Shown here in pieces: positions 4,254 through 64,000 of a stretch of 64,000 bases of DNA (the first letter of the stretch is position 1; each line of letters begins with the position of its first letter). The stretch lies in the NCBI GenBank assembly GCA_947176265.1, contig CAMWQA010000001.1, forward strand, positions 11,772-75,771, read 5' to 3'. The notes under the pieces were generated by a model. The model saw nothing but the letters and a program-made list of their open reading frames with translations, was not told where the DNA came from and searched no databases. This stretch comes from an uncultured Clostridia bacterium. GTDB taxonomy: Bacteria; Bacillota; Clostridia; Christensenellales; UBA3700. The translations under genes and the position numbers were made by a program.

Positions 4254-5057
4254 TCAAAGTTTTACGGCAATTGGCTTGTGAGCCAAATACTTGAAAAGAT
4301 ACTTAAAGCCGGTTGCTTTCAACCATTCTGCGACAAGGGAATACTTTTCTCCTATACGTCCGCAAAAATGAGCGTCTGAACCAAAGGTAAGCAATTCGCC
4401 GCCAAGTTCTTTATATCTCGACAAAATTTCAGTAGTGGGGAGGAAGTCAAGCCCCGTGCCTTTGCTTTGAGAGTTTATCTCCAAAGCTTTGCCCTTTGCG
4501 ATAATAGTCTTCAATATATCGTCGATAATATCTGCAAAATCTTTGTATACGAGAGCTTTGTCTTCGTAAGTGCTTTTGCGCACGACGTAGCCTATATGAC
4601 CTACGCTGTCAAAGTGGTAAGGGCAGTCAAGGCTTTCTCTCACAGCTTTGAGATATGCGCCGTATGCTTGCGACTTTGTGCGTTTAGCAAAGTATGACGG
4701 CATATAGCAGTCTTCGTATTCAATCGTATGAATCGAGTTGATAATTATATCCGTATCGAATCCCGATAGTTTGGATAAATAGAGATTGTTTGCCTCTTTC
4801 ATATATCCGCACTCAATACCCACGCCAACTTCTATTTTGCCCTTATATCTTTCTTTAAGCGCTCTTATCTCGTCAAAGTGATTTTCAAGATCAATTTGCG
4901 GTATGTAATCAAATTCGGGAAGGAATGTCAATTCGCCGTCAAAGTGGTCGGTAAAAGCAAGATAATCCATACCTTGCGATATGGCGTATTCAATCATCTC
5001 TATCGGATCTTCTTTGCTATCGTGCGAGTGTCTGCAATGTGTGTGAGTGTCAAACAT
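4254..5057 (-). CDS. PHP-family histidinol-phosphatase-like hydrolase (HisJ/HisK type)
   Basis: 267 aa. The N-terminus MFDTHTHCRHSHDS...YLAFTDH shows the typical PHP metal-binding His/Asp pattern, and the C-terminus has GSDAH. Confidence 0.75.
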   Translation of the reverse strand: MFDTHTHCRHSHDSKEDPIEMIEYAISQGMDYLAFTDHFDGELTFLPEFDYIPQIDLENHFDEIRALKERYKGKIEVGVGIECGYMKEANNLYLSKLSGFDTDIIINSIHTIEYEDCYMPSYFAKRTKSQAYGAYLKAVRESLDCPYHFDSVGHIGYVVRKSTYEDKALVYKDFADIIDDILKTIIAKGKALEINSQSKGTGLDFLPTTEILSRYKELGGELLTFGSDAHFCGRIGEKYSLVAEWLKATGFKYLFKYLAHKPIAVKL

Positions 5058-12268: not shown

Positions 12269-12294
12269 TAAGATTATATGATGATTTTTAACAC

Positions 12295-12372
12295 TCGCCA
12301 AAAGCGAATATAACTTTGCCAAAGGCAAAATATAACTCCGACGCAGTCGGAATATAACTGTCGCAAAGCGAC
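12295..12372 (+). repeat. Tandem mini-hairpin array A: four 13-nt palindromes separated by AATATAACT
   Basis: TCGCcaaaaGCGA, TTGCCaaaGGCAA, CCGACgcaGTCGG and GTCGCaaaGCGAC start at 12295, 12316, 12338 and 12360 (22-nt period). The first three are followed by (A)ATATAACT. Confidence 0.85.
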
Positions 12373-12389
12373 ATAAGGAGGATAGCGCT

Positions 12390-19562: not shown

Positions 19563-19760
19563 GCTTCGCTCAGTAAGTAACCAACCGCATATAGCACAGC
19601 TCTTTTTGCCCTAACGACTGAATGCCCTCGGGGTCACGTACGGCAAGTACGCTTACCACTCGGTTATCGTCGCACGGACAAAAATAGCAGTACTCTCTGC
19701 GGTTGCGCTAAACTTTTTAAAGGTGGATGTCATTTCGACCGAAACGAAGCGGAGAAATCT
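19563..19760 (+). repeat. Composite ~200-bp 3'-flank element (family-2 core plus a family-1 end), copy a
   Basis: The core 19626-19663, CCTCGGGGTCACGTACGGCAAGTACGCTTACCACTCGG, matches the reverse complement of 60768-60805 at 36/38 nt. The flanks align by eye. The element ends in a family-1 unit at 19729-19760. Confidence 0.75.
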
Positions 19761-19798
19761 AAATCAATAAAAAAGAAGGCGAGAGAACTCTCGCCTTT

Positions 19799-19826
19799 GT
19801 CATTCTGAGCGTAGTCGAAGAATCTC
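19799..19826 (+). repeat. Family-1 dispersed repeat, copy c
   Basis: GTCATTCTgagcgtagtcgaAGAATCTC. Confidence 0.75.
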
Positions 19827-19846
19827 CCCGATTTAAAAACCCAATG

Positions 19847-19873
19847 GTATTTCGACCGAAGTGGAGAAATCTC
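19847..19873 (+). repeat. Family-1 dispersed repeat, copy d
   Basis: GTATTTCgaccgaagtggaGAAATCTC. Confidence 0.7.
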
Positions 19874-19880
19874 GATCAGA

Positions 19881-41919: not shown

Positions 41920-43656
41920 TTATATGCGTTTTTTCTTTTTGGCAAATACTATCAATACGGTTGCAATTGCCGTTGCGACGGCTACGCAAGGGATAGTTAT
42001 TACCAAAGCAAGTTGCCAAGAGGTAAGACCCGACGGTTTGACGTTGGCAGTCTTGACGTAAGCAGTTTTGCCTTCAAAGTATACTGCCGTCCACTCGCTT
42101 TTTTTGTTGTATTTTTCTTTAAGATATACTGTCGTACCTTCGGGGAGCTGGGTAAGCTCTATAGCGTCTTCCGCGTTTTGATAAGGCAGAGCGTAAAGCG
42201 TGATATACTGTCCCAATTTCTTTGACGTCAGTTTTACGGATTTTGAAAGCGACGGAGCAGTGAGCTCGGTATACGGCGAAAGATTTTGCGTCTTGACGTA
42301 ACCGTATTGAGTCTTGCCGTCACTGCCGACAAATCCCACTTTGTACCACCCCCATGTGAAGTCGCCGTCTTGACCTACGTTGTCAATGACGATGAGTTGC
42401 ATAAATATCGTAGCGTCGAGAATTTTTTCGCTGCCTGCGCCCTCAAAAGGATATTTGTAAATTGCGGTGTTTTGGTGCAAAGGTTGAGCGTAAGCTCCGA
42501 TTATGTTCTCTTTTTCTGCAGGGCAGAGAGTTATGTTCGCCGCCTTTTTGATATATCCGTACTGAGTTTTGTTCTCAACGGAGTCGTGATAATACACGTA
42601 AAGATAGTCGTCTTTTTCGCTCAAAACGATAAAATATCTGCCTTGAGGAATTACTCCCATACGTTGCAAATGTCTTGGAGAAGAATACAACGTGACGTCT
42701 GCGCCCGTTTTGTATAGCTTGACGATGTCAAACTCCGCAGGGTGCATGTATACCGTATTGTCAAAACAGCCGTAGTATTCTAGATTGCCGTCGGTATGGA
42801 CGTACATATTGACTGCGTTGAGATTGGATTTTGTATATACGTACGACGTGTCGGTGTCGCCGTTGTAAGCCGAGCATATTTTGCTGTTTCCGTCAAGCCC
42901 ATCGACCGCAAAGGTGGAGATAGACGAGTCTATATCGTTGAATTGATATACGTTGCTTGCGCTGAGCAGCAATATCTTTTTGCCGGATACGGTTATTCCG
43001 GTATAATCTCCGCTGCGTTTGAGGAACTTTGACAAATCATCGTAATGGAAGTTTTGTTCGTCAATCGCGTAGAAATCTCCGTTCAAAATGCAGTATAGAG
43101 TATTGTTCATTACTGCAAAATCTTTTACGTCTTTATAGGCGGGATTAAGCGTCCAATCGGTATTAGAGTTGAAGTATTGAGAAATGACTTCCGGAGGATT
43201 GATGGATATATGTATAACTTTGTTGGTCTCCATTGCATAAAAGCCGTCTTCATTTGCGTATATTCCCACAAGATACTCCACGTGCAAATCGTTTAGCGCA
43301 AAGTTGATTTTTGCAATACGCATATCGTTGTACTCATAAGCCCAAAGGTATTTTTCATCTCCTTTTTGGGCAAGCGCAATAATATGCGTCGAGTCCATGG
43401 CAATATCAATAAATCCGTCGAAATCGCTCTTTTCCTCATAGCTCAACAATTTGTTGTCTTTTGCAAGGTATATCCCTTTTGAATTGGTATAGACAAAGTA
43501 ATCGCCGTAAGCCGTCAGCAAGCTGTCGCTCTTCAACGACACCAGCACGTCTACGTTTTCTGCATTGGCAACGTCTTGCGTTGAAACAATGCTTGTTAGG
43601 CACAAGACGGCAGCCAAACACAATATTAAGGATAATCCAAAGATTTTTCTTTTCAT
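41920..43656 (-). CDS. Signal-peptide protein with SH3b-like repeats and a C-terminal TM anchor; function unknown
   Basis: Signal peptide MKRKIFGLSLILCLAAVLCL...ANA. Repeated ...YGY[IV]K... SH3b-like segments. The C-terminus is LALVITIPCVAVATAIATVLIVFAKKKKRI. Confidence 0.6.
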   Translation of the reverse strand: MKRKIFGLSLILCLAAVLCLTSIVSTQDVANAENVDVLVSLKSDSLLTAYGDYFVYTNSKGIYLAKDNKLLSYEEKSDFDGFIDIAMDSTHIIALAQKGDEKYLWAYEYNDMRIAKINFALNDLHVEYLVGIYANEDGFYAMETNKVIHISINPPEVISQYFNSNTDWTLNPAYKDVKDFAVMNNTLYCILNGDFYAIDEQNFHYDDLSKFLKRSGDYTGITVSGKKILLLSASNVYQFNDIDSSISTFAVDGLDGNSKICSAYNGDTDTSYVYTKSNLNAVNMYVHTDGNLEYYGCFDNTVYMHPAEFDIVKLYKTGADVTLYSSPRHLQRMGVIPQGRYFIVLSEKDDYLYVYYHDSVENKTQYGYIKKAANITLCPAEKENIIGAYAQPLHQNTAIYKYPFEGAGSEKILDATIFMQLIVIDNVGQDGDFTWGWYKVGFVGSDGKTQYGYVKTQNLSPYTELTAPSLSKSVKLTSKKLGQYITLYALPYQNAEDAIELTQLPEGTTVYLKEKYNKKSEWTAVYFEGKTAYVKTANVKPSGLTSWQLALVITIPCVAVATAIATVLIVFAKKKKRI

Positions 43657-43662
43657 AACAGT

Positions 43663-43671
43663 ATTATAACA
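43663..43671 (-). promoter_or_regulatory. Extended -10 element placed for a leaderless SH3b-protein mRNA
   Basis: Minus strand reads TGTTATAAT-ACTGTT-ATG(43656), with no SD. Confidence 0.5.
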
Positions 43672-43733
43672 CACTATATTTAAAAATTAAAGCAAAAAAA
43701 TATAGCATAATTAAGAAATATAATAAAGAAAGA

Positions 43734-45242: not shown

Positions 45243-46295
45243 TTATTTCATCAAAGCGTTCTTCAAATTATCGCTAATATTCATTTTATCGAGTTTTGAT
45301 TTATCGTATGTAAACCACTGCTCATAGTAGTTGTCGCTTGAACCTTTGAGGCTAAGAATCATATTTGCGTTCCACAAATTTGCGTTGACGTACGTTCTGA
45401 TAAGTCCGCATTCCCAAATCTCTATGGTCAAGTGCTTTTTAGCGTACTCAAATTCTTTGATTGCGCTTATGTCGAGCATATCTTTGACAGAATTTTCAAG
45501 CGTATTGTTTTTGCAGTTGATATCGCATTCAAGACGGTATATGCCTGCGTCTGCGTTGTAGGTCAATTTTCCTGCCGTAATAGGCTTATCGTTGTCGTAA
45601 TTATCCGTAGTAAAGCTCTTGTAACTTTCTCTTGAATTTGTCATTTTCATATACTCGTTGTATGTCATCTTTTTAGCTTTCGGCTTTTTGTAGATTACGG
45701 CGTTTTGGTCAGGGAAATTGACTATAGTATTTTGATTTGTCGATCCCTTATCGGAGAAATAAAAATCTTTACCGTTGGGGGAGTAGACTCTCTTGGTATA
45801 GTTTAGCGCGCTTGACAGTACGCTCAAAATACTGCTGTCGACTTTGCCGTGAGAACCGTCTTTTTTTACGGTATATCCGTCGACGATAAGACCATAGGAG
45901 TCAAAGTAATATGTATCGTTATCAAACACGCGTACTTCGCGAGTTTGCATAGAGCCGACTATCGTACCGCCGTTGATTGTAGCCGTGCCGTAGCCAAAAG
46001 CGCCTGCGGCAAAGAAATCGGTTTCAATTAAATTTTTGTTGGACAGTCTCAAAAGATACTCGATTGAGTCGAGCACGGCTTTGTCTTCAGTTACAGTTTC
46101 GCTCAAGGCGATTTTATCTTTATCTACCGGAGTAGATTTTGCGATTGCTTCTTGCGTAGGCTTGGAAGCCAATCCGTCGAATTCGAGACTTGCTTCAGCA
46201 TTTGTGGGCGTATGTACGCAACCTGCAAATATTGCGGCGATCAACGTCGCGATGACGAGTATAGCCGCGATTATCAATGTCTTTCTTTTTTTCAT
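45243..46295 (-). CDS. Lipoprotein of unknown function
   Basis: MKKRKTLIIAAILVIATLIAAIFAGC contains a lipobox. ATG 46295 lies 6 nt after GGAG. Confidence 0.6.
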   Translation of the reverse strand: MKKRKTLIIAAILVIATLIAAIFAGCVHTPTNAEASLEFDGLASKPTQEAIAKSTPVDKDKIALSETVTEDKAVLDSIEYLLRLSNKNLIETDFFAAGAFGYGTATINGGTIVGSMQTREVRVFDNDTYYFDSYGLIVDGYTVKKDGSHGKVDSSILSVLSSALNYTKRVYSPNGKDFYFSDKGSTNQNTIVNFPDQNAVIYKKPKAKKMTYNEYMKMTNSRESYKSFTTDNYDNDKPITAGKLTYNADAGIYRLECDINCKNNTLENSVKDMLDISAIKEFEYAKKHLTIEIWECGLIRTYVNANLWNANMILSLKGSSDNYYEQWFTYDKSKLDKMNISDNLKNALMK

Positions 46296-46591
46296 AATCA
46301 TCTCCAAAGATATACTTTTATGCGGTATATCACTAAATAAAGTATACATTATATCCCGAGTATATGTCAACCCCCAAAGGTTTTTCCTACGTTCTCGGTT
46401 GGTTTGCAAACGCCAATATTACGCATGATTTTATCAAATTCCCTTAAATTCGTCAAAATTTTTGCAATATATCTAACGGCGGACGAAACTATTCTCTTTG
46501 CGCCAATAATTACTCTACTCAAAAAGTTGTGCTATTAAATAATTTATGATAAAATAATGGCAAAGAAAGACTTTGGGAGTGAAAATCTACT

Positions 46592-52653: not shown

Positions 52654-54550
52654 AAGCATAAAAGGTACGATGCCGATACTAGGCAGACTTATCAAATATA
52701 TGTTCAAGTACTATAAATTGCAGCTTATAGTAGTGTTGATTTGCATTACGCTCAACGCTATGGCGGCAATAAGTTCGTCGATATTTATTGAGAGAATAAC
52801 CAACGACGTCATTATTCCAGGTCTTGAACACGGATGGGACAGCGTAAAAGATACTATGTTTACCATAGTAGCGATAATGGTTGGCATATATATTGTGGGA
52901 CTTATAGCGTCGTTTACCTACAATAGAATAATGGCTCACGTAACGCAGGGTTTTTTGTATCACGTCCGCAACGATATGTTCAAAAAGATGCAGTCGCTTC
53001 CAATCAAGTTTTTTGATACGCATACGCACGGCGATATTATGAGTATATACACCAACGATACCGACGCTATTCGACAGCTCATCTCGCAAAGCGTTCCGCA
53101 GACGTACTCGTCGTTTGTTGCGATAATCACTTTGCTTGTCACAATGTTGGTCTCAAGCGTATGGCTTACGCTCGTAGTACTTGCGGGAGTGTGCTTAATG
53201 TTTGTAGTAATAAAGTTGATTGGCAGCAAGAGCGCAAAATACTTTATGCGTCAGCAAATAGCAATGGGTAAGTCGGAAGGCTTTATTGAAGAGATGATGC
53301 ACGGGCAAAAAGTTGTCAAAGTATTTTGTCACGAAGAAAAGGCAAAGGCAGACTTCGACGTTATCAACGACGGCTTGTTTAAAGACAGCGAAAGAGCCAA
53401 TAAGTACGCAAATATCCTCATGCCTACGCTAGGCAATATAGGCTACGTGCTTTACGTAGTAGTAGCCATAGTGGGCGGAGTACTGTCGCTTGCAGGCGCG
53501 CATAATCTTTCGCTCAAAGGTCTTGCCGCAGAGGGAATAACGATGGGCGCAATCGTGGCCTTCCTGAATATGAGCAGACAGTTTACGTTCAATATATCGC
53601 AAGTATCTACTCAGCTCAACTCCGTTGTAATGGCTACCGCCGGCGCAAGCAGAATTTTCAAATTGTTGGATCAATCTCCCGAGACAGACGAGGGATATGT
53701 TACGCTTGTCAATGCAAAGGAAGAGAACGGACAACTTGTTGAGTGCGAGGAACGTACGGGTATCTGGGCGTGGAAGCATCCGCATAAAGCAGAGGGCACG
53801 ATTACGTATCAAAGACTTACGGGAGATATCGAACTCAACGAAGTAGACTTTGGATACGTTCCCGAGAAGATAGTATTGCACGACGTAACAATACACGCAA
53901 AACGCGGACAAAAGATTGCTTTCGTAGGCGCAACCGGCGCGGGCAAGACTACGATAACCAATCTTATCAACAGATTTTACGATATTGCCGACGGCAAGAT
54001 ACGCTATGACGGTATAAATATAAATAAGATAAAGAAGGGCGACTTGCGCAGATCTTTGGGAATAGTTTTGCAAGATACCAATTTATTTACAGGTACTATT
54101 ATGGATAATATTCGTTACGGTAGACTTGACGCGACGGACGAAGAGTGTATCGCCGCTGCAAAACTTGCCAACGCGCACGACTTTATCACGCGTCTGCCGA
54201 GCGGCTATGAGACTATGCTTACGGGCGACGGCGCTAATCTTTCGCAAGGACAAAAACAGTTGCTTTCTATCGCAAGAGCGGCGGTAGCAGACGCTCCCGT
54301 AATGATTTTGGACGAAGCAACTTCGTCAATTGACACTCGTACCGAAGCGCTCGTTCAGCAAGGTATGGATAGACTTATGGAAGGTAGGACGGTATTCGTT
54401 ATCGCGCACAGACTTTCCACCGTGCAAAATTCCGATATGATTATCGTGCTAGATCACGGTCGTATTATCGAGAGCGGCAATCACGACGAGTTGATTGCGC
54501 AAGGCGGACAGTATTATCAGTTGTATACCGGAGCATTTGAGCTAGAATAA
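52637..54550 (+). CDS. ABC exporter, fused permease/ATPase (half-transporter 2)
   Basis: Walker A GATGAGKTT, signature LSQGQKQ, Walker B MILDEATS. Overlaps the preceding gene by 17 nt. Confidence 0.9.
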   Translation: MAQKTRSIKGTMPILGRLIKYMFKYYKLQLIVVLICITLNAMAAISSSIFIERITNDVIIPGLEHGWDSVKDTMFTIVAIMVGIYIVGLIASFTYNRIMAHVTQGFLYHVRNDMFKKMQSLPIKFFDTHTHGDIMSIYTNDTDAIRQLISQSVPQTYSSFVAIITLLVTMLVSSVWLTLVVLAGVCLMFVVIKLIGSKSAKYFMRQQIAMGKSEGFIEEMMHGQKVVKVFCHEEKAKADFDVINDGLFKDSERANKYANILMPTLGNIGYVLYVVVAIVGGVLSLAGAHNLSLKGLAAEGITMGAIVAFLNMSRQFTFNISQVSTQLNSVVMATAGASRIFKLLDQSPETDEGYVTLVNAKEENGQLVECEERTGIWAWKHPHKAEGTITYQRLTGDIELNEVDFGYVPEKIVLHDVTIHAKRGQKIAFVGATGAGKTTITNLINRFYDIADGKIRYDGININKIKKGDLRRSLGIVLQDTNLFTGTIMDNIRYGRLDATDEECIAAAKLANAHDFITRLPSGYETMLTGDGANLSQGQKQLLSIARAAVADAPVMILDEATSSIDTRTEALVQQGMDRLMEGRTVFVIAHRLSTVQNSDMIIVLDHGRIIESGNHDELIAQGGQYYQLYTGAFELE

Positions 54551-54642
54551 GCCAAAAGCTTATTCTAGCAGTTATATTCCGCCGTTGATGGGGTTATATT
54601 GCCCCTTGGACAGTTATATTATTGCTTCGCAATAGTGAGATT
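54541..54642 (+). repeat. Mini-hairpin array B-left (AGTTATATT orientation), partly degenerate
   Basis: GCTAGAATAAGCcaaaaGCTTATTCTAGC (covers the ABC stop codon) + AGTTATATT; two degenerate units; ATTGCttcGCAAT + AGTGAGATT. Confidence 0.75.
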
Positions 54643-54671
54643 AAAATAGAAGGCAAAAAGCCTTCTATTTT
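54643..54671. terminator. Hairpin/terminator inside the left cassette arm
   Basis: AAAATAGAAGGCaaaaaGCCTTCTATTTT: a 12-bp stem with A/U-rich shoulders. Confidence 0.6.
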
Positions 54672-54713
54672 AGTTACGGATAAGTTATTTAGATTTTATA
54701 AAGAAAACTAATA

Positions 54714-55063
54714 TTAGTTTTCTTTTAGTGTTTTGCAAGAAGAAATTAACATAATTCTTATTGCGCCACAATTATTATTAAGTTTTTTAAAATCATTTTC
54801 AGATATGTAGCCTGTTTCAAATAGAAGTTCCAACCAATACTCGCTTTCATAACATTTTTTAAGGCAATCTCAAACTTGGATATAAAGTCCAACTTGCTTT
54901 GAGCATACTGCGCCTCATAAATATTTGCTCCTATGCTCGTTCCTGAACGAATAAGTTGATTTGCCAAAACGCTTTCAATTTTTGACGAATTTATACTTTT
55001 GCATAAAGTAATAATTTCTTTTGCAAACGCTTTTGACTTTTCTCTCAATACACTATCGCTCAT
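54714..55063 (-). pseudogene. Four-helix-bundle protein gene (23S rRNA IVS protein / PF05635-like), interrupted by a frameshift at an A6 run
   Basis: The zero frame gives ...LANQLIRSGTSIGANIYEAQ...FEIALKN and then nonsense. The -1 frame continues CYESEYWLELLFETGYISENDFKKL...KTLKEN*, which matches the family. The span is 350 nt, one nt short of an open frame. T6 run at 54855-54860 (+ strand). Confidence 0.75.
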
Positions 55064-55082
55064 TACTATTTACCTCAATTAA

Positions 55083-55111
55083 ATTTTATCAACATTAATA
55101 TTCACAGTCAA
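55083..55111 (-). promoter_or_regulatory. Cassette-internal promoter of the four-helix-bundle gene
   Basis: Minus strand reads TTGACT(55111-55106)-17 nt-TAAAAT(55088-55083) with a TGa extended -10. SD GAGGT lies 8 nt before the ATG at 55063. Confidence 0.6.
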
Positions 55112-55139
55112 TAAAAAATTATAATAATTATCCGTAACT

Positions 55140-55168
55140 AAAATAGAAGGCTTTTTGCCTTCTATTTT
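55140..55168. terminator. Hairpin/terminator inside the right cassette arm
   Basis: AAAATAGAAGGCtttttGCCTTCTATTTT, the mirror of 54643-54671. Confidence 0.6.
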
Positions 55169-55177
55169 AATCTCACT

Positions 55178-55259
55178 ATTGCGAAGCAATAATATAACTG
55201 CCCGAAGGGCAATATAACTATTTTCTTGCTTGCAAGAAAATAATATAACTTGCAAGCTC
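55178..55259 (+). repeat. Mini-hairpin array B-right (AATATAACT orientation)
   Basis: ATTGCgaaGCAAT, GCCCgaaGGGC and ATTTTCTTgcttgcAAGAAAAT are each followed by AATATAACT. The last hairpin, GCAAgctctgtTTGC, reaches the thiT stop codon. Confidence 0.8.
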
Positions 55260-55265
55260 TGTTTG

Positions 55266-56267
55266 CTAACTTTCTTCGACGTTATCGTTTTTGCTTATCA
55301 CTTCGCTTTGTTCGGAGTTGCCGACTTCCGCGCTTGCAATGCCGTCGCTCGCAACTCTTGCTCTTTGCTTGTATACCACTTCATTCATAAATGCTTTTGA
55401 CGAGAAGAGTAACATACCTACTGCGAGTACTATTGCGATATCCACGAATACGAAAGAGTTGTACCCAAGGCTATATATGTAGATATTCTGTCCTGCGTCG
55501 TGCGCGTACGCTCCGAATGCGCATACGCCCGAGAGAAAGTGCGCCATAAATCTCAATACGCTTGCCATAATGCCGCCCAGCAACAAAGATACTTGCGGAA
55601 GTTTTTTGAACACGTAAAATTTTGCAAACGCTCCGCTTAGTCCAATTGCAGAAAAGGCGATTGGGTAATCTAGCAAGAATTGCACGGGATGAATAATGTA
55701 CGGGTCTTGAATTGCTTGCAATACGCCGTATATTAAACCTACAAGCAAGCCTTTCTTCACTCCGAAGATATAAGAGAAAAGCATAAGCGGAAGTAGGGAA
55801 GCAAGCGTTACGCTTCCTCCTTGCGGTAATTTAAACAGTCTAACGTAAGACAATGCAAAGCTCATTGCAATGCAGACTGCGCCAAACGCAACGGAGCGAG
55901 AATCAAATTTAAAATTCTCTTTTCTGCCAAGCAAGAAGGTCAAGCCTATTACCGCGCCTATCAATACGACTGCGCTTATATAAAGAGGCGCGTTCTTGAA
56001 GTAAGGGGAGTAGTACCCGTCATTTTTGATATTGTCGACGTAATACTTGCCAATGAGCGAAATGCACACGATCGTGGCAACAATGCAAAGTCCTATGGCA
56101 ACGTAGATACATATACCGATAGTCTTTGGGGCGCGCTTACGCAAATACATTAAAAACATAAATGCAAAAAGCGCAATGAATAGTGCAAAGATAGGCCAGA
56201 AGAGTAGATCGGGCAATTCGTCGCCGCTCGACGTCTTGACAGCCATCAATACAAAGAGGTTGTTCAT
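55266..56267 (-). CDS. thiT: Thiamine transporter ThiT-like ECF S-component, with N- and C-terminal extensions
   Basis: The core GGSVTLASLLPLMLFSYIFGVKKGLLVGLIYGVLQ...HPVQFLLDYPIAF resembles the ThiT/YuaJ family. A TPP riboswitch lies upstream. At 333 aa it is long for an S-component. Confidence 0.7.
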   Translation of the reverse strand: MNNLFVLMAVKTSSGDELPDLLFWPIFALFIALFAFMFLMYLRKRAPKTIGICIYVAIGLCIVATIVCISLIGKYYVDNIKNDGYYSPYFKNAPLYISAVVLIGAVIGLTFLLGRKENFKFDSRSVAFGAVCIAMSFALSYVRLFKLPQGGSVTLASLLPLMLFSYIFGVKKGLLVGLIYGVLQAIQDPYIIHPVQFLLDYPIAFSAIGLSGAFAKFYVFKKLPQVSLLLGGIMASVLRFMAHFLSGVCAFGAYAHDAGQNIYIYSLGYNSFVFVDIAIVLAVGMLLFSSKAFMNEVVYKQRARVASDGIASAEVGNSEQSEVISKNDNVEES

Positions 56268-56549: not shown

Positions 56550-58643
56550 TTAAGCGTTAGCGTCACTAGCATTACCAATCTTGAATTGATTAAATTTGAA
56601 AACTACATCTATTGGGAATGCAATGCCGCCGCCGAAATCAACTGTTTGAGCTTCGCCTGTAAGCGAAGTAGCAGATTTAGCAGTAACGGTTATGCCGTTC
56701 TTGTTTGCCTCGATTTTAGCAGAGACGTTCAATCTTCCTGCGTTGCTGCCAGCTGCTGCCTTACCAGCGTTTGCTGCGTTGATTATAATGTTCTTGATAG
56801 AAGCTTGGAGTACGATACCCGTCTTGTCAGCTACTACGGTTGCGTCCAATGTGGTGTCGCCCAAATCTACTTCTTTTTGCTTGCCGGTCTTCTCGTCGAT
56901 AACTTCAACTTCAACGTCTTCGCCTTTCTCGTTTTTCTGAGTCTCAGTTGCTTTCCAAATGTTGCTAGCTACAGAGTAGTTCTTGAAGTCTACGTCAGCC
57001 AACTTGCCGTCGCAGTTTACGAGGATGGTCAAGTTCTTGATGATTGGAGCAAGAGTCTTCATTAATTTTTGAATATCTATGCCGTCTTTTTTGTCGTCGC
57101 CGGAAGGAGCGCCTGAAAGATCGCCAGATACGTTACCCGATACGTTACCGGATGCATTACCGCTACCTATTTCAGGTTTTGCTTCTTCCTTAGGAAGGAA
57201 TCCCTTGACTATGTCAATAACGCGGCCAAGTTTAACAGTACCGCTTGGGAACATTGCGCCGAGGTCGCCCAACAATGCAAGGTTTGTCAAGTTAACGTTC
57301 AAGTCAACGGTGGTTTCACTTGTATAGATTTTCTTGAGCGAAATGATAAGTTGCTTATCTTCATCTTCTGGATGATCTTTATCCTTAATTTCAATGCTGA
57401 GATAGTCAACTACGTTTGTCAAGATTTTGCTAATCAACGACAATGTCTCGTCAGTATTCTTTGATTTAAAGCTCGTTCCGAGAAGTCCAACAGGGTTGAG
57501 GTCAGCGGCAATATTAACTGTGTAAGTGCCGGTAGGTATACCAAGCTTCTTTTCGCCATTGAGATTCAACGTAACTTCAATAGGTTTCTTAACTTCAAGT
57601 TCGCCGCCTGCAGTGAAGTTGATTGCGTTGATAGCCTTATAAGATGCTGCAGAACCAATTATATATGGTACGGTTACGTCTCCGCCGAATTTGAAATCAA
57701 GACCGAGTCCCAATTCGGTATTCTTATCCAAATTGATACGTACGAAATTAGTTTCGTCAGTTCTTGTTAACTTAAGATCTTTGGTGCCCAAGTTGAGTTT
57801 AGCGTCAACGCCCATGAATTTTGCGTCTTCAAATTTGTCTTTTTCTGCGCCATCCATCTTGAAGTGGAGATCAAGCGTCAAAGATGGGAGAAGGGTCTTG
57901 ATGTCGCTAGTCTTCAAAGCAAGACCAAGTTGTCCGGTGTACTCTTCGATCTCCAAGCCTTCCAACAAATCGTTTGCGTTTTCCAAGACTTGTGCAAGAT
58001 TGAGTCGGAAGAGAACTTCTTTTTTGTCATTTGATTGCCAGGTTTTGCCAAGGCTGAAAACGGTTTGCATCTTCTCAAGCGCGTCGCCAAGTGCGTCGAG
58101 TACGTCGTTGGTAACGCTTTCGTCATCGACAACTACGTTCTCACTCTTCATGACAGACTTGATGCTCAAAGCGTCAACTGCAAATTTTTGTTTGCCAAGG
58201 TCAAGGAAGAGAGTGCCTTCGCCTGTCTTGTAGCCTTCTTCTGTAGACTCGTCAGGTCGTTCAGTGTAATATACGTTCAAAATGTTTGCGTTGTTAGCTT
58301 TTGCGTCAACGATGGACAAGCCAAACGTGGTCTTGTTAGCGTCGTCAGCTTTCAAAGCAACGTTAGCGCCGAATTTAATGCGATAGTCGCATGCCGCGTC
58401 GCCGTACTTAGCAGCTACTCTAAGCTCTGCGCCCATTTTGATCGAGCTTACATCCTTACCATCTGAAGTGTTGTAGATAGCATCGTTTAATGCTTCCGAT
58501 AGTGGTGTCGCCATTTTACTGTATCCCGCAGGTGGGGTGTCTTTGTCTTCGTCTTTTGGACCGCAACCTACCAAAGCGGTAAGAGCAAGAGTAAGAACCA
58601 TCACAAGGATCAACAAAGAAATGACTAGTTTCTTCTTGTTCAT
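56550..58643 (-). CDS. Large lipoprotein of unknown function
   Basis: MNKKKLVISLLILVMVLTLALTALVGC contains a lipobox. Strong SD (TAGGAGG). Internal GSGNASGNVSGNVSGDLSG linker. I recognise no family motif. Confidence 0.6.
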   Translation of the reverse strand: MNKKKLVISLLILVMVLTLALTALVGCGPKDEDKDTPPAGYSKMATPLSEALNDAIYNTSDGKDVSSIKMGAELRVAAKYGDAACDYRIKFGANVALKADDANKTTFGLSIVDAKANNANILNVYYTERPDESTEEGYKTGEGTLFLDLGKQKFAVDALSIKSVMKSENVVVDDESVTNDVLDALGDALEKMQTVFSLGKTWQSNDKKEVLFRLNLAQVLENANDLLEGLEIEEYTGQLGLALKTSDIKTLLPSLTLDLHFKMDGAEKDKFEDAKFMGVDAKLNLGTKDLKLTRTDETNFVRINLDKNTELGLGLDFKFGGDVTVPYIIGSAASYKAINAINFTAGGELEVKKPIEVTLNLNGEKKLGIPTGTYTVNIAADLNPVGLLGTSFKSKNTDETLSLISKILTNVVDYLSIEIKDKDHPEDEDKQLIISLKKIYTSETTVDLNVNLTNLALLGDLGAMFPSGTVKLGRVIDIVKGFLPKEEAKPEIGSGNASGNVSGNVSGDLSGAPSGDDKKDGIDIQKLMKTLAPIIKNLTILVNCDGKLADVDFKNYSVASNIWKATETQKNEKGEDVEVEVIDEKTGKQKEVDLGDTTLDATVVADKTGIVLQASIKNIIINAANAGKAAAGSNAGRLNVSAKIEANKNGITVTAKSATSLTGEAQTVDFGGGIAFPIDVVFKFNQFKIGNASDANA

Positions 58644-58824: not shown

Positions 58825-59172
58825 ATGAAACAATTTTGCGGAAGAACAATTGATTGGGTTAAGACGGGCAAAAACCTTGAGTATTTGAGAAGACATAACG
58901 TCAAACTTATTAAGAACGTTTGCGCTTATTGCAGAAGTCAAGAAGACAGCAAGACTTATTGCGAAGGCGGAGCAAAGTGCGAGACCTGCACGTTTGAGAT
59001 GGACAATCACATCTCGCGCAGCGAACTTGCCCGCGCGGTTGTGGGCTGGTCTGATTCTCAGATAGCCAATTGGGAAGACGCAAGGTCGGTTATCTCTATT
59101 GAAGACCTTTACGTGTACTGCCAACTCTGCGACATAACACTCGAAGATATTATTGTATTCGACTCAAAGTGA
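58825..59172 (+). CDS. XRE-like HTH protein with an inserted Cys-rich (zinc-ribbon-like) segment
   Basis: ISRSELARAVVGWSDSQIANWEDARSVISIEDLYVYCQLCDITLEDII is HTH_3-like. It is preceded by CAYC-x9-C-x5-C-x2-C. SD GGAG. Confidence 0.55.
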   Translation: MKQFCGRTIDWVKTGKNLEYLRRHNVKLIKNVCAYCRSQEDSKTYCEGGAKCETCTFEMDNHISRSELARAVVGWSDSQIANWEDARSVISIEDLYVYCQLCDITLEDIIVFDSK

Positions 59173-59318
59173 GGTGTCGTAATTTTATACGGCAATAACG
59201 CTCCCTATACTTCTTCAAACTCACTTGTCGTACGGCAAGTACGACTGCATTCGTTTTCATTGTCTGGAAATCGTTCTTGCTCGTAAAATTCTTACGCCAC
59301 TCACTTCTCGTCGAACGT
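59164..59318 (+). repeat. Family-2 palindromic element, copy c
   Basis: Apex GTCGTACggcaaGTACGAC (59227-59245). The outer arms 59164-59192 and 59288-59318 are partially complementary by eye. Confidence 0.55.
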
Positions 59319-59376
59319 AGAGTGGATTTTTATTCTATCGATACCGGCAACTTTGCATGTTTTTAAAATGTTTAAT

Positions 59377-59390
59377 GTCATTCTGAGCGC
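59377..59390 (+). repeat. Family-1 repeat, 5' half only (copy f), overlapping the MFS stop codon
   Basis: GTCATTCTGAGCGC. On the minus strand it encodes ...KRSE* of the MFS gene. Confidence 0.6.
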
Positions 59391-61638: not shown

Positions 61639-63312
61639 ATGGAAAATAATAAAGAAATGATAAGTTCGTTCCAAAGTTTTGGATTGAACGCCGAAATTAT
61701 AAAGAGTCTTGACGAACAAGGCATCACGCTTCCCACGGATATACAGAGGGAAGTGATTCCATTTGCGCTTCAAGACGGAGACGTAGTAGCTCAAGCGCCT
61801 ACTGGCACGGGCAAGACGCTTGCGTTCGTATTGCCTATGCTTGCAAAGATAGACAGAGACGCTTCATGCGTACAGGCGATCGTGCTTTGTCCTACCAGAG
61901 AACTCGTAATCCAGATTTGCGAAGTAATTCAAAACGCTTGCAAGTATTACGAGCGTGTGCGAGTCGCAGGGCTTTACGGCGGACAGAATATTCAAAGACA
62001 GCTCTTTTGTCTTCGCAAAAAACCTCAAATCGTCGTAGGTACTCCCGGCAGACTGCTCGATCATATCGACAGACGCACATTGAAATTGAACGACGTCAAT
62101 TACCTAGTGCTTGACGAGTGCGACGAAATGCTAGATATGGGATTTAGAGGGGATATAGAAAAGATAGACGGCAAAGTGAGCGAGGCTCAAAGACTTTGTT
62201 TTTCTGCGACCATACCGCAATCTATCAAGTCTCTTATCGAGAAACTTTTGCGCAATCCCACCTTTGTCAAGACGTCGGTCGACGGCGAAGATACCCCCAA
62301 GATTGAGCAGTATTATTGCGTAGTCAAGGACGCTCAGCGTCTTGGCGCAATGCTCAAGATTATCGACGGCAACAAATACGATTTCGTCATCGCATTTTGC
62401 AATACCAAGACGAGAGCGGACAAACTTTTCTCCGCGCTCAAATCAAAGGGAAGAGAAGTTGCGCTTTTGCACGGCGACTTGCGACAGAGCGAGCGCACGC
62501 AGATATTAAAGAGGTTCAAAGCAAAAGAGCTTAAAATACTCGTTGCCACCGACGTTGCGTCGCGCGGCCTTGATATTGACGGAGTACAGGCGATAATCAA
62601 TTTCGATCCGCCGACGGACGAAGATTTTTACGTGCACCGCATAGGCAGGACTGCAAGGGCAAACAAAGAAGGCGTGGCTTATACTCTCATTGACAGTTCT
62701 CAAGTGGGATATATTCCCTCGTATCAACGCAAAGTGGACAACGCGCTTAAATATATGGATATAGGCGTCATTTCCGACAGCTTTACTATGCCTAAAGACG
62801 GATCTAATAAACTCAAAGATTTTCACGACAACCAAAGCAGATTTTTCCTCAACGTAGGCAAACGCGACTTGCTTGACAAAGACAGTCTTACCAAGTTGCT
62901 TTTGACGTATACGCCGTTAAAAATATACGAGATTGCCGACCTTAAAATTAGAGATACATACGCATTCGTATCGGTTATCAAAGGTTGCGAGAGCAAACTG
63001 TTTAAACTCAAAGGCGTGGTCCTCGGCAAAAGACAAGTTGCAATCCAAGAGGCGCGAGAGGAAGAAAAACCGCAAAAACAAAACGCGCCTTTGCAAAAGA
63101 AGAGCGAGAGCAAGTCGGCAAAAGGCAAAACAGGCAAAAATATCGATGGTAAAAAATACGCGCCAAAAGATAAATCGCCAAAGTCCAAAAACAATAATTC
63201 AAAGAGTAAGCCGCATACGCAATCCAATAAAAGCCGACTTACGCAAATGTTTGAAGACGAGTTAAACTATTCAGCAAAGTACTCTCAAAAGAGTGGCAAG
63301 AAGAAAAAGTGA
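61639..63312 (+). CDS. DEAD-box ATP-dependent RNA helicase with a DbpA-like RNA-binding domain and a long Lys-rich tail
   Basis: Q-motif region, AQAPTGTGKT, DECD, SAT and HRIGRTAR motifs. The C-terminus has RFFLNVGKRD...AFVSV, which is DbpA-like. Confidence 0.9.
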   Translation: MENNKEMISSFQSFGLNAEIIKSLDEQGITLPTDIQREVIPFALQDGDVVAQAPTGTGKTLAFVLPMLAKIDRDASCVQAIVLCPTRELVIQICEVIQNACKYYERVRVAGLYGGQNIQRQLFCLRKKPQIVVGTPGRLLDHIDRRTLKLNDVNYLVLDECDEMLDMGFRGDIEKIDGKVSEAQRLCFSATIPQSIKSLIEKLLRNPTFVKTSVDGEDTPKIEQYYCVVKDAQRLGAMLKIIDGNKYDFVIAFCNTKTRADKLFSALKSKGREVALLHGDLRQSERTQILKRFKAKELKILVATDVASRGLDIDGVQAIINFDPPTDEDFYVHRIGRTARANKEGVAYTLIDSSQVGYIPSYQRKVDNALKYMDIGVISDSFTMPKDGSNKLKDFHDNQSRFFLNVGKRDLLDKDSLTKLLLTYTPLKIYEIADLKIRDTYAFVSVIKGCESKLFKLKGVVLGKRQVAIQEAREEEKPQKQNAPLQKKSESKSAKGKTGKNIDGKKYAPKDKSPKSKNNNSKSKPHTQSNKSRLTQMFEDELNYSAKYSQKSGKKKK

Positions 63313-63469
63313 GATTATTGCTGAGCAACAGTGATAATATAATAAGTGGACGAGCAGTCCTCTGCGCGGACAGTTATATTTTTGCCTATGGCAAAAGTTA
63401 TATTGCCACTGCGTGGCAGTTATATACGCCTTCGGCGAGTTATATCGTCGCTATGCGACGGTTAAGGAT
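63308..63469 (+). repeat. Mini-hairpin array C (AGTTATAT orientation)
   Basis: AGTGAGATT (contains the helicase stop TGA); TTGCtgaGCAA; GGACgagcaGTCC/GTCCtctgcgcGGAC; TTTGCCtatGGCAAA; GCCACtgcGTGGC; CGCCttcGGCG; CGTCGCtatGCGACG. From the third hairpin through the sixth, each is followed by AGTTATAT(T). Confidence 0.85.
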
Positions 63470-63484
63470 ACTTTATTAAGATTA

Positions 63485-63510
63485 GATTCTTCGACTTCGC
63501 TCAGAATGAC
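63485..63510 (-). repeat. Family-1 dispersed repeat, copy g
   Basis: The reverse complement reads GTCATTCTgagcgaagtcgaAGAATC. Confidence 0.75.
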
Positions 63511-63593
63511 AGAAAAACCACTCTCGTTTGGCGAGAAGGGAGATAGGCAAAGGATAAAATAGTAGATTTTGCGTCAAGGCGGTGTTGGACGAG

Positions 63594-63620
63594 CTTTGTC
63601 GTACTTGCTGTACGTCAAAG
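63594..63620 (-). repeat. Family-2 apex hairpin, copy d (degenerate)
   Basis: CTTTGTCGTACttgctGTACGTCAAAG. Confidence 0.5.
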
Positions 63621-63694
63621 TGAGTACAATACTGAATTGGCGAAAAAGATGCATTTTAGACTTGACTATCCTACCTTTGAGCCAAACAAAAAAA

Positions 63695-64000
63695 TCACGC
63701 TTTCACGTTACGCCACATTCTATTCATTGCGCGAGTTTTGTTGCCGTAATCTTTCATTACCGCGCATCTTTGCACGATTTCTAAAGTGGGGAATTGCGCT
63801 TCGAATGCGTTGTAGTTTTCCTCTTCCACGTAAATTATCGTATCGAATTCGCTGTCCTCGCCAAAGAAGTATGACAGGTCAACATAATAATCCGTCTCTT
63901 CGTCGCTTGCCCAATTCTCAATAATATAATCGTATACCTCTTGCGAAACTACTCCCGACGTATAACCTATATAATCCATATTTTGCACGGCAATATCGCC
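63695..64000 (-). CDS. C-terminal fragment of an ABC-transporter solute-binding protein (PotD-like); the 5' end lies beyond the window
   Basis: The frame stays open to nt 64000 (GDIAVQNMDYIGYTS...). The C-terminus ...DYGNKTRAMNRMWRNVKA resembles the ends of spermidine/putrescine-type SBPs. The identification is tentative. Confidence 0.45.
   Translation of the reverse strand, partial: GDIAVQNMDYIGYTSGVVSQEVYDYIIENWASDEETDYYVDLSYFFGEDSEFDTIIYVEEENYNAFEAQFPTLEIVQRCAVMKDYGNKTRAMNRMWRNVKA

Follow-up and report, generated by a model that had tools for sequence, protein, structure and literature searches.

A lone hairpin-repeat arm behind a helicase gene in an uncultured Clostridia bacterium and its link to the Gut-1 motif and small PF05635 cassettes

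The spacer between a DEAD-box helicase gene and a solute-binding-protein gene in an uncultured Clostridia bacterium contains an array of short hairpins joined by a repeated linker, which is the subject of this study. The stretch of DNA analyzed, hereafter called the window, is 64,000 nt long and covers positions 11,772-75,771 of contig CAMWQA010000001.1 in the assembly GCA_947176265.1. Four such arrays, A to D, are present in the window, and array D is the one located behind the helicase gene, together with copies of two other repeat families, 1 and 2. Loci that were fetched from other genomes and metagenomes for comparison are referred to by L-numbers (e.g., L117, L023). The features of the spacer and its neighbors are the following.

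61639..63312, plus strand: coding sequence of the DEAD-box helicase, from the list of open reading frames (ORFs); Pfam DEAD, Helicase_C and DbpA; a 100% identical protein is present in a metagenome-assembled genome (MAG) named 'Clostridia bacterium'
63308..63469, plus strand: array D, a lone forward arm of Gut-1-type hairpin repeats; fold z = -4.5; best Rfam match Gut-1
63315-63339, 63346-63371, 63380-63395, 63404-63417, 63426-63437 and 63446-63460: hairpins of array D
63372, 63396, 63418 and 63438: four exact AGTTATAT linkers of array D, preceded by the linker variants AGTGAGAT and AGTGATAA
63461..63478, plus strand: inner-end motif of the array D arm, GTTAAGGATACTTTATTA; a similar motif closes arms in other loci
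63485..63510, minus strand: unit of family 1, GTCATTCTGAGCGAAGTCGAAGAATCT, inserted separately over about 32 nt and missing in L119 and L123
63521..63537, minus strand: terminator-like hairpin and T-run serving the solute-binding-protein gene; terminator scan and spacer alignment
63550..63682, minus strand: palindrome of family 2, inserted over about 135 nt and folding into a long imperfect hairpin; fold, apex match and alignment of three window copies; present in L123, absent from L119/L120
63695..64000, minus strand: 3' part of the solute-binding-protein gene, running off the window; ORF list; synteny with L117, L121 and L123

The stop codon of the helicase gene, TGA (63310-63312), falls within the first linker-like 9-mer of the array, AGTGAGATT, which recurs at 54634-54642. 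Both points had been made in a sequence-only reading of this DNA and are borne out here, as are all hairpins it listed in the array at 63308-63469, the four AGTTATAT linkers and the GTTAAGGA that follows the last hairpin. That reading had also described a family-1 unit in reverse orientation, for which we found an exact match to the 13-mer GTCATTCTGAGCG at 63498-63510 on the minus strand, a degenerate apex hairpin of family 2, which we located at 63598-63616 with 2 mismatches, and the stop of the partial solute-binding-protein ORF at 63695; the complete protein has 450 aa in the relatives. The folding energy of the array is -60.9 kcal/mol (z = -4.5), a stability reached by none of 200 shuffled sequences. 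The linker AGTTATAT occurs 14 times in the window compared to 2.75 times expected, a number reached in none of 100 shuffles, and 12 of the 14 copies fall inside the four arrays. An origin by chance or low sequence complexity is rejected by these counts.

Arms of this kind are closed at their inner end by a motif with the forms AGTTAAGGAT... or AGTTnnnGGCGAATATA, as in L073 (AGTTAAGGATTTATTTA), L092, L110 and L113 and in a cassette elsewhere in the window (AGTTACGGATAA), and in L152 and L067 the motif lies 25-45 nt upstream of the start codon of a gene for a PF05635 protein. No reverse arm of array D was found within 63250-63750, nor was a PF05635 ORF found in 63308-63694, and tblastn searches of the window matched such a gene only at 54761-55063. 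Since the inner-end motif is present but the gene and the reverse arm are not, array D is a lone, or orphan, arm of a small repeat element.

We fetched and aligned the orthologous helicase-to-solute-binding-protein spacer from relatives (L119/L120, L121/L122 and L123). In L119/L120, with 93% helicase identity, the spacer is only about 85 bp long, essentially a single terminator hairpin, and carries no insertion. In L123 (87% helicase identity), the only addition is the family-2 palindrome, with a length of about 135 nt, while L121/L122 have a unit resembling family 1 together with an additional ORF. Among the aligned spacers, only that of the window contains array D (about 170 nt) and the family-1 unit (about 32 nt), and the hairpin at 63521-63537 is the sole part of the spacer that is conserved across all relatives. 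Furthermore, no arrays were found across 4-22 kb of the fetched syntenic loci in relatives with 85-93% helicase identity. The alignments show, with different subsets present in different relatives, that the spacer is a nest of insertions: the array, the unit of family 1 and the palindrome of family 2 entered an ancestral spacer of about 85 bp independently of each other. The three insertions probably serve no host function beyond providing the helicase stop codon and 3' hairpins.

Such independent insertions support a common preference for the 3' ends of genes and argue against a single composite element. The sequence-only reading had left the choice open between an insertion preference for convergent gene ends and a composite element and had reported all three families as packed together also at 19563-19880 and 59164-59390. 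At these two sites we found families 1 and 2 but neither AGTTATAT nor a GTTATAT unit. Wherever family 2 occurs in the window, which is at three sites, family 1 lies next to it, and the array meets them at one site only, which is the spacer with array D. A composite of the three families is not supported, and the insertion preference is retained for gene 3' ends, in line with the separate insertions and with the array contexts reported below. An alignment of the region to a known mobile element is not supported either: there were no blastn matches to plasmids or phages, and a phage origin is further contradicted by the lack of GC hairpin arrays in the 118 pattern matches in viral contigs.

The two other families differ from the array. 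Family 1 was rejected as a hairpin element since its fold is no more stable than those of shuffled sequences, and it is restricted to the lineage of the window among the loci searched. The apex of family 2 is predicted to be the tip of a minus-strand hairpin of about 170 nt, and its Rfam matches are at noise level, so that it was rejected as a known RNA. All three family-2 copies (19563-19730, 59173-59330 and 63512-63694) are long imperfect palindromes with a conserved apex, CGTACGGCAAGTACG, and each begins directly behind the stop codon of a gene, read in the direction of that gene; the three genes encode a phosphofructokinase, a helix-turn-helix protein and the solute-binding protein, respectively; a family-1 unit is located 20-80 nt beyond family 2 at each site. 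We also observed that the L119/L120 contigs of the closest relative (93%) stop at 4413 and 4391 bp, about 100 bp past the helicase stop codon, which fits with short-read assemblies being broken by repeats at this spacer.

To place the array in a broader context, we scanned species-representative genomes with a query of three AGTTATAT copies at hairpin spacing. At least 116 loci matched, about half of which are true hairpin arrays, the remainder being unrelated tandem repeats. All statistics on units and contexts refer to 58 arrays with 164 units among the matches listed. The true arrays come almost exclusively from uncultured gut and rumen Clostridia, including Ruminococcus RUG MAGs, Christensenellaceae, Acutalibacteraceae and Oscillospiraceae, and a single MAG, RUG14256, contains at least seven array loci.

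The repeat unit consists of a 7-8-nt linker, (A)GTTATAT, and a short hairpin of the form T-stem-loop-stem-A. There are 124 distinct hairpin sequences in the 164 units. At least four nested perfect pairs are present in 148 of the 164 units but in only 1 of 164 once the sequences are shuffled, and T-A is the base pair of the hairpin in 144 of these 148. The loops are 3-4 nt long and mostly start with T (TTC, TGC, TGAC, TAC). Hence, the pairing of the hairpin is kept while its sequence is free. The number of linkers per arm is mostly 3-5 with a mode of 4, which lends no support to the idea that five linkers per arm match a pentameric protein. A plain tandem repeat was rejected on anatomy. CRISPR was also rejected, as the constant part is 8 nt rather than 23-50 nt, the variable parts are palindromes of 10-20 nt instead of unique non-palindromic spacers, and the only match to a CRISPR model scored 13 bits. 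Integron attC sites were rejected because the linkers within an arm are direct repeats (GTTATAT...GTTATAT) rather than inverse core sites (RYYYAAC and GTTRRRY) on the two sides of each palindrome and no integrase is encoded in the window.

The arrays are located between convergent genes in 17 cases, between co-directional genes in 27 cases (12 sense, 15 antisense) and between divergent genes in one. Arrays or cassettes were also observed just downstream of genes for stable RNAs, such as a cluster of tRNA, 6S RNA and tRNA genes in L124 (2392-2848) and a tmRNA gene in L010 (1-90), and the element in L035 (3048-3466) is positioned between convergent tRNA genes. The arrays are dynamic: L135 is short of exactly two units compared to strains of the same species from the human gut, and single uncompensated stem changes segregate within that species. 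In the MAG CAKQKI01, gene-less elements with 97% identity are present at two loci, L023 (6640-7003, 364 bp) and L098 (323-596, 274 bp), and in both cases joining the flanks restores an intrinsic terminator composed of an A-tract, a GC-stem and a T-tract, from which it follows that both copies lie in the loop of a terminator. The L098 element resembles a deletion derivative of the L023 element between two TTGCTTTGCAAA repeats.

The Gut-1 motif, RF01706 in Rfam, was reported from human-gut sequences with neither a sequenced organism nor a function (Weinberg et al., 2010, PMC2864571). It is the only Rfam family that recurs for the arrays and the top match for all four in the window, with scores of 44.6 bits for A, 43.4 for C, 35.6 for B and 19.4 for D; no window sequence reaches the curated cut-off of 50 bits, and the E-values for A, B and C range from 7e-8 to 4e-5. 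The Gut-1 consensus consists of hairpins joined by GUGAAAU, and the array linkers align to AGUUAUAU in the model with both hairpins matched, so the tandem GC-rich hairpins and the constant 7-8-nt linker are shared, whereas the window linker is mostly GTTATAT. The cut-off is exceeded by AGTTATAT arrays in L034, L052 and L056 and by arms beside PF05635 genes in L124, L127, L152 and L184, and GTTATAT and GTGATAT alternate within single arrays above the cut-off. Furthermore, the Gut-1 seed sequence BAAZ01025322 contains a tRNA, a terminator, a GUUAUAU/GUGAUAU array, a center and a reverse array and represents the same locus as L127, with an identical type from L127 to L145. In L037, on the minus strand downstream of an array at 920-964, the AGTTATAT array continues into hairpins with the classical Gut-1 linker GATGAAAT, showing that both linker types coexist in one array. 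Because Gut-1 is the top match for all four window arrays, passes the cut-off in related arrays and shares a seed locus with them, array D is classified from its sequence as a diverged member of the Gut-1 motif, with a score of its own of 19.4 bits. While Gut-1 was described from the human gut only, the arrays in our data occur in both orientations in MAGs of Clostridia from rumen, deer and other guts.

The arrays might act as RNA, either as a stand-alone small RNA, the form in which Gut-1 is filed in Rfam, or in the 3' untranslated region of the upstream gene as serial weak terminators or exonuclease blocks, with a unit composed of a GC hairpin and the U-rich AGUUAUAUU. Gut-1 was indeed rated a likely RNA on the basis of covariation (Weinberg et al., PMC2864571), but palindromic DNA yields covariation equally well, and the stem mutations segregate uncompensated. 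Arrays B, C and D come after a co-oriented gene with no intervening terminator, whereas most arrays in other genomes follow a canonical terminator and would rarely be transcribed; in L067 and L152, the gap between the arm and the start codon of the PF05635 gene is too short for a promoter, and the arm must therefore be transcribed there. Two units (hairpin plus AGTTATATT) were flagged in a loose terminator scan, which were in arms B and C, with none in array D, and no more than 5 of the 9 linker bases are T. The reversed position of array A between two co-directional genes also speaks for an RNA. On the other side, co-directional spacers among the matches listed hold arrays in sense 12 times and in antisense 15 times, arrays are missing at the same loci in close relatives, and the promoter signal at array D is not above chance. 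We therefore find an RNA function of the array rather doubtful.

A different explanation is suggested by the genes that accompany the arrays. Arrays A to C and the cassette formed by B and C are listed here.

12290..12385, minus strand: array A, a second lone arm; Gut-1 44.6 bits, E = 7e-8
54540-54690, plus strand: array B, with AGTTATAT linkers; as arm B of the cassette, 54541-54700; Gut-1 35.6 bits
55130-55265, minus strand: array C, with AGTTATAT linkers; as arm C of the cassette, 55114-55266; Gut-1 43.4 bits
54541..55266, no strand assigned: full-length cassette with arm B, a minus-strand PF05635 gene and the reversed arm C; missing from the same spacer in the relative L117
54714..55063, minus strand: gene for a four-helix-bundle protein of PF05635/TIGR02436 (23S rRNA intervening sequence protein, Avd-like); Pfam E = 3e-13; TIGR02436; PDB 2RLD E = 6e-16

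The window thus holds one full cassette, whose inverted arms span 54593-55218, and the two lone arms A and D. The inverted arms of the cassette (54593-54697 and 55114-55218) are 105 nt long each and 91% complementary. In other genomes, we identified PF05635 homologs in 12 of about 55 array loci among the matches listed, often 46-60 bp from the array. For the reverse test, we collected 80 metagenome loci encoding PF05635 relatives, corresponding to 64 distinct proteins, and at least 10 of these 64 have GTTATAT or GTGATAT hairpin arrays next to the gene. Many of the remaining genes have inverted short repeats of other kinds on their two sides, including hairpins with the linkers GTGAAGTG, ATGAATTG or GTGAAAT and plain arrays of heptamers, for example TTAGTGG, AATTAGC and ATTCGGA. 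Overall, a 7-mer is present at least four times in 34 of 60 PF05635 flanks as compared to 26 of 230 control windows.

From the outside to the inside, a complete element comprises an outer terminator-like hairpin, the forward arm, the inner-end motif, a gene or a short center, and the reverse arm. The center is a PF05635 gene in the window, L152 and L067, and only a short sequence in L063, L056, L035, L034 and others. The lowest-energy folds predicted for L056 and L035 have the linkers of the forward arm paired to those of the reverse arm and the hairpins protruding. Gut-1-type arrays are accordingly the inverted terminal arms of small PF05635 cassettes and of their gene-less derivatives. This link is new; no description of it was found in the literature searched.

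Several features of the arrays are reminiscent of the repetitive extragenic palindromic (REP) sequences, bacterial interspersed mosaic elements and REPINs of the Proteobacteria, which are likewise short, extragenic, multi-copy palindromes in mosaic arrays near the 3' ends of genes. The arrays could then have been spread in trans by an HUH enzyme encoded elsewhere in the genome, either a REP-associated tyrosine transposase (RAYT) or a TnpA of the IS200/IS605 type, and PF05635 genes would merely share the sites that are tolerated. The combination of a hairpin with a short conserved flanking motif, the avoidance of divergent promoter regions, the occurrence in both orientations and the copy number, with at least seven loci in RUG14256, all fit. 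REP stems are, however, conserved within a family, whereas 124 of 164 hairpins are distinct among the matches listed and only the 8-nt linker is constant, and a GTAG-type motif is not present. The sequence-only reading had pointed to a RAYT or IS200/IS605-type enzyme as a candidate, but our scan of the 30 window proteins revealed no HUH enzyme and, more broadly, no transposase, RAYT, reverse transcriptase or integrase. In addition, the arrays are tied to PF05635 genes closely and in a structured way, through a shared inner-end motif, enclosing arms and a gap of 46-60 bp, and this tie recurs with unrelated linker types; the partner here is a four-helix-bundle protein. Spread by an HUH enzyme is for these reasons quite unlikely.

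Among the known systems close to the cassettes are the intervening sequences (IVSs) in 23S rRNA genes, which are regarded as selfish elements with terminal inverted repeats around an ORF for S23p, a homopentameric protein, and are cut by RNase III (PMC4990558). As in the IVSs of Leptospira and Coxiella, a PF05635 ORF of about 115 aa is enclosed by terminal inverted repeats that can form a long stem, the distribution is patchy and the ORFs are decaying (PMC4990558). The window cassette differs in being located between protein-coding genes rather than in a 23S rRNA helix, there being no rRNA in the window, and its arms are built from units of linkers and hairpins instead of the plain 28-bp stem of the IVS. 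Array D has neither the PF05635 ORF nor the reverse arm, both of which are present in the element at 54593-55218, where the ORF is frameshifted.

PF05635 proteins also resemble Avd, the accessory protein of diversity-generating retroelements (DGRs; PMC10053308), and one may ask whether the hairpins are cruciform DNA targets for homing by reverse transcription, with an Avd-like PF05635 protein and a reverse transcriptase acting in trans. DGR targets require a GC-rich hairpin with a free stem sequence and a GRNA loop that possibly touches Avd (PMC3240598), and the loops of the arrays, read on the strand complementary to the linkers, take the form G(N)NA (GAA, GCA, GTA, GTCA, GTAA). The stems in the arrays are however shorter, 4-7 bp as compared to 7-10 bp, the loops are often only 3 nt, and the hairpins occur in arrays rather than singly. 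No reverse transcriptase, template or variable repeat was found near the window cassette and there is no evidence of adenine-specific mutagenesis, so that despite the shared fold family such a role in homing is very improbable.

We favor the hypothesis that array D is the orphan arm of a selfish, IVS-type element of the Gut-1 family, and we assign a probability of about 0.55 to this explanation as a whole. According to this hypothesis, which builds on the biology of the IVSs (PMC4990558) and the relation between PF05635 and Avd (PMC10053308), the cassettes would behave like selfish IVS-type elements that settle beside or inside the terminator hairpins at the 3' ends of genes and tRNAs. The two arms would pair with each other through the linkers, with the hairpins sticking out, and the pentameric PF05635 protein might bind to the repeated linkers. 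Arms could then be lengthened, shortened or orphaned when identical linkers recombine or slip.

Several observations weigh against the selfish-cassette hypothesis. Mobility of the element and binding of the protein to the linkers are suggested by analogy, and no mobility enzyme was identified among the 30 window proteins. To our knowledge, PF05635 proteins are not recombinases. Lacking both a partner arm and a gene, array D is unable to fold into an IVS-like stem by itself. About three quarters of the array loci among the matches listed have no PF05635 gene within up to 8 kb per locus, and the link to PF05635 could therefore partly reflect shared "safe" sites. The ORF calls in the fetched loci are crude. 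The uncompensated stem mutations fit with decay, but they also indicate that there is no strong maintenance of the pairing. When the loci were tested in general for inverted repeats in the flanks, the signal was weak, 13% as compared to 5% in controls, and terminator-loop insertion, observed at just two loci of a single genome, was rejected as a general rule. Finally, the PF05635 ORF of 101 codons enclosed by the arms in the window is frameshifted near 54850 at an A-run; the alternative frame reads ESEYWLELLFETGYISENDFKKLNNNCGAIRIMLISSCKTLKEN*, which is the canonical C-terminal helix. The frameshift could be due to decay of the gene or an error in the assembly, or it could be programmed, and we observed that the homologs in L008, L077, L091 and L097 also fall into two tblastn pieces.

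A broader and more tentative hypothesis, which we consider possible though not probable, is that a widespread, so far unrecognized class of tiny cassettes has the Gut-1 arrays, as well as the plain heptamer arrays around PF05635 genes in other phyla, as its cis-acting ends, and that this class has also given rise to the IVSs in 23S rRNA. An Avd-like pentamer might then read the 7-nt linkers, insertion would take place in or beside the hairpin loops of terminators and stable RNAs, and the gene-less copies and lone arms would be non-autonomous offspring. For about 30 years, we know of no mechanism that has been established for PF05635/S23p proteins and rRNA intervening sequences. Two orphans, Gut-1 and PF05635, are here tied together by the arms around the genes, by the two near-identical copies in terminator loops of one genome and by the gene-less copies and lone arms that are scattered at the 3' ends of genes and tRNAs in many gut and rumen Clostridia. 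In practical terms, such arrays should be annotated as repeat elements rather than as independent small-RNA genes, and they may be expected to break short-read assemblies, as exemplified by the contig end after the helicase gene in the relative with 93% identity.

Some additional observations concern the arms and the cassette. The outermost hairpin of an arm may be an inverted copy of the flank of the target, as seen at arms B and D but not at arm C. In array D, the left arm of the first hairpin (63315-63339) is the native flank ATTATTG. The first hairpin of arm B (54541-54569) has a 12-bp stem and the loop CAAAA, and its left arm consists of the stop codon and last codons of an ABC-transporter gene; the right arm of this hairpin is absent from the relative L117. 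Array A is inserted in reversed (antisense) orientation between two co-directional plus-strand genes of a glycogen cluster, encoding a nucleotidyl-transferase and a starch synthase, with only a few bases separating the end of its first hairpin from the downstream ribosome-binding site of the starch-synthase gene. A promoter scan indicated a promoter-like site upstream of the PF05635 gene at 55111-55083.

In other lineages (L185, L186, L192, L193, L196, L198, L201 and L202), the PF05635 genes are flanked by inverted plain tandem heptamers, for example TTAGTGG/CCACTAA and ATTCGGA/TCCGAAT, and the order of the units is shuffled between the two sides. The short tandem heptamer repeats of cyanobacteria (STRR), grouped here with very small dispersed hairpin repeats, also have a 7-nt period, and we take this resemblance as a lead only. 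Elsewhere in the window, three large ORFs had no Pfam match at E <= 1e-5, all on the minus strand: 41920-43674 (584 aa), 45243-46409 (388 aa) and 56550-58643 (697 aa). The 697-aa ORF is syntenic in the relatives, where it encodes 677-681 aa.

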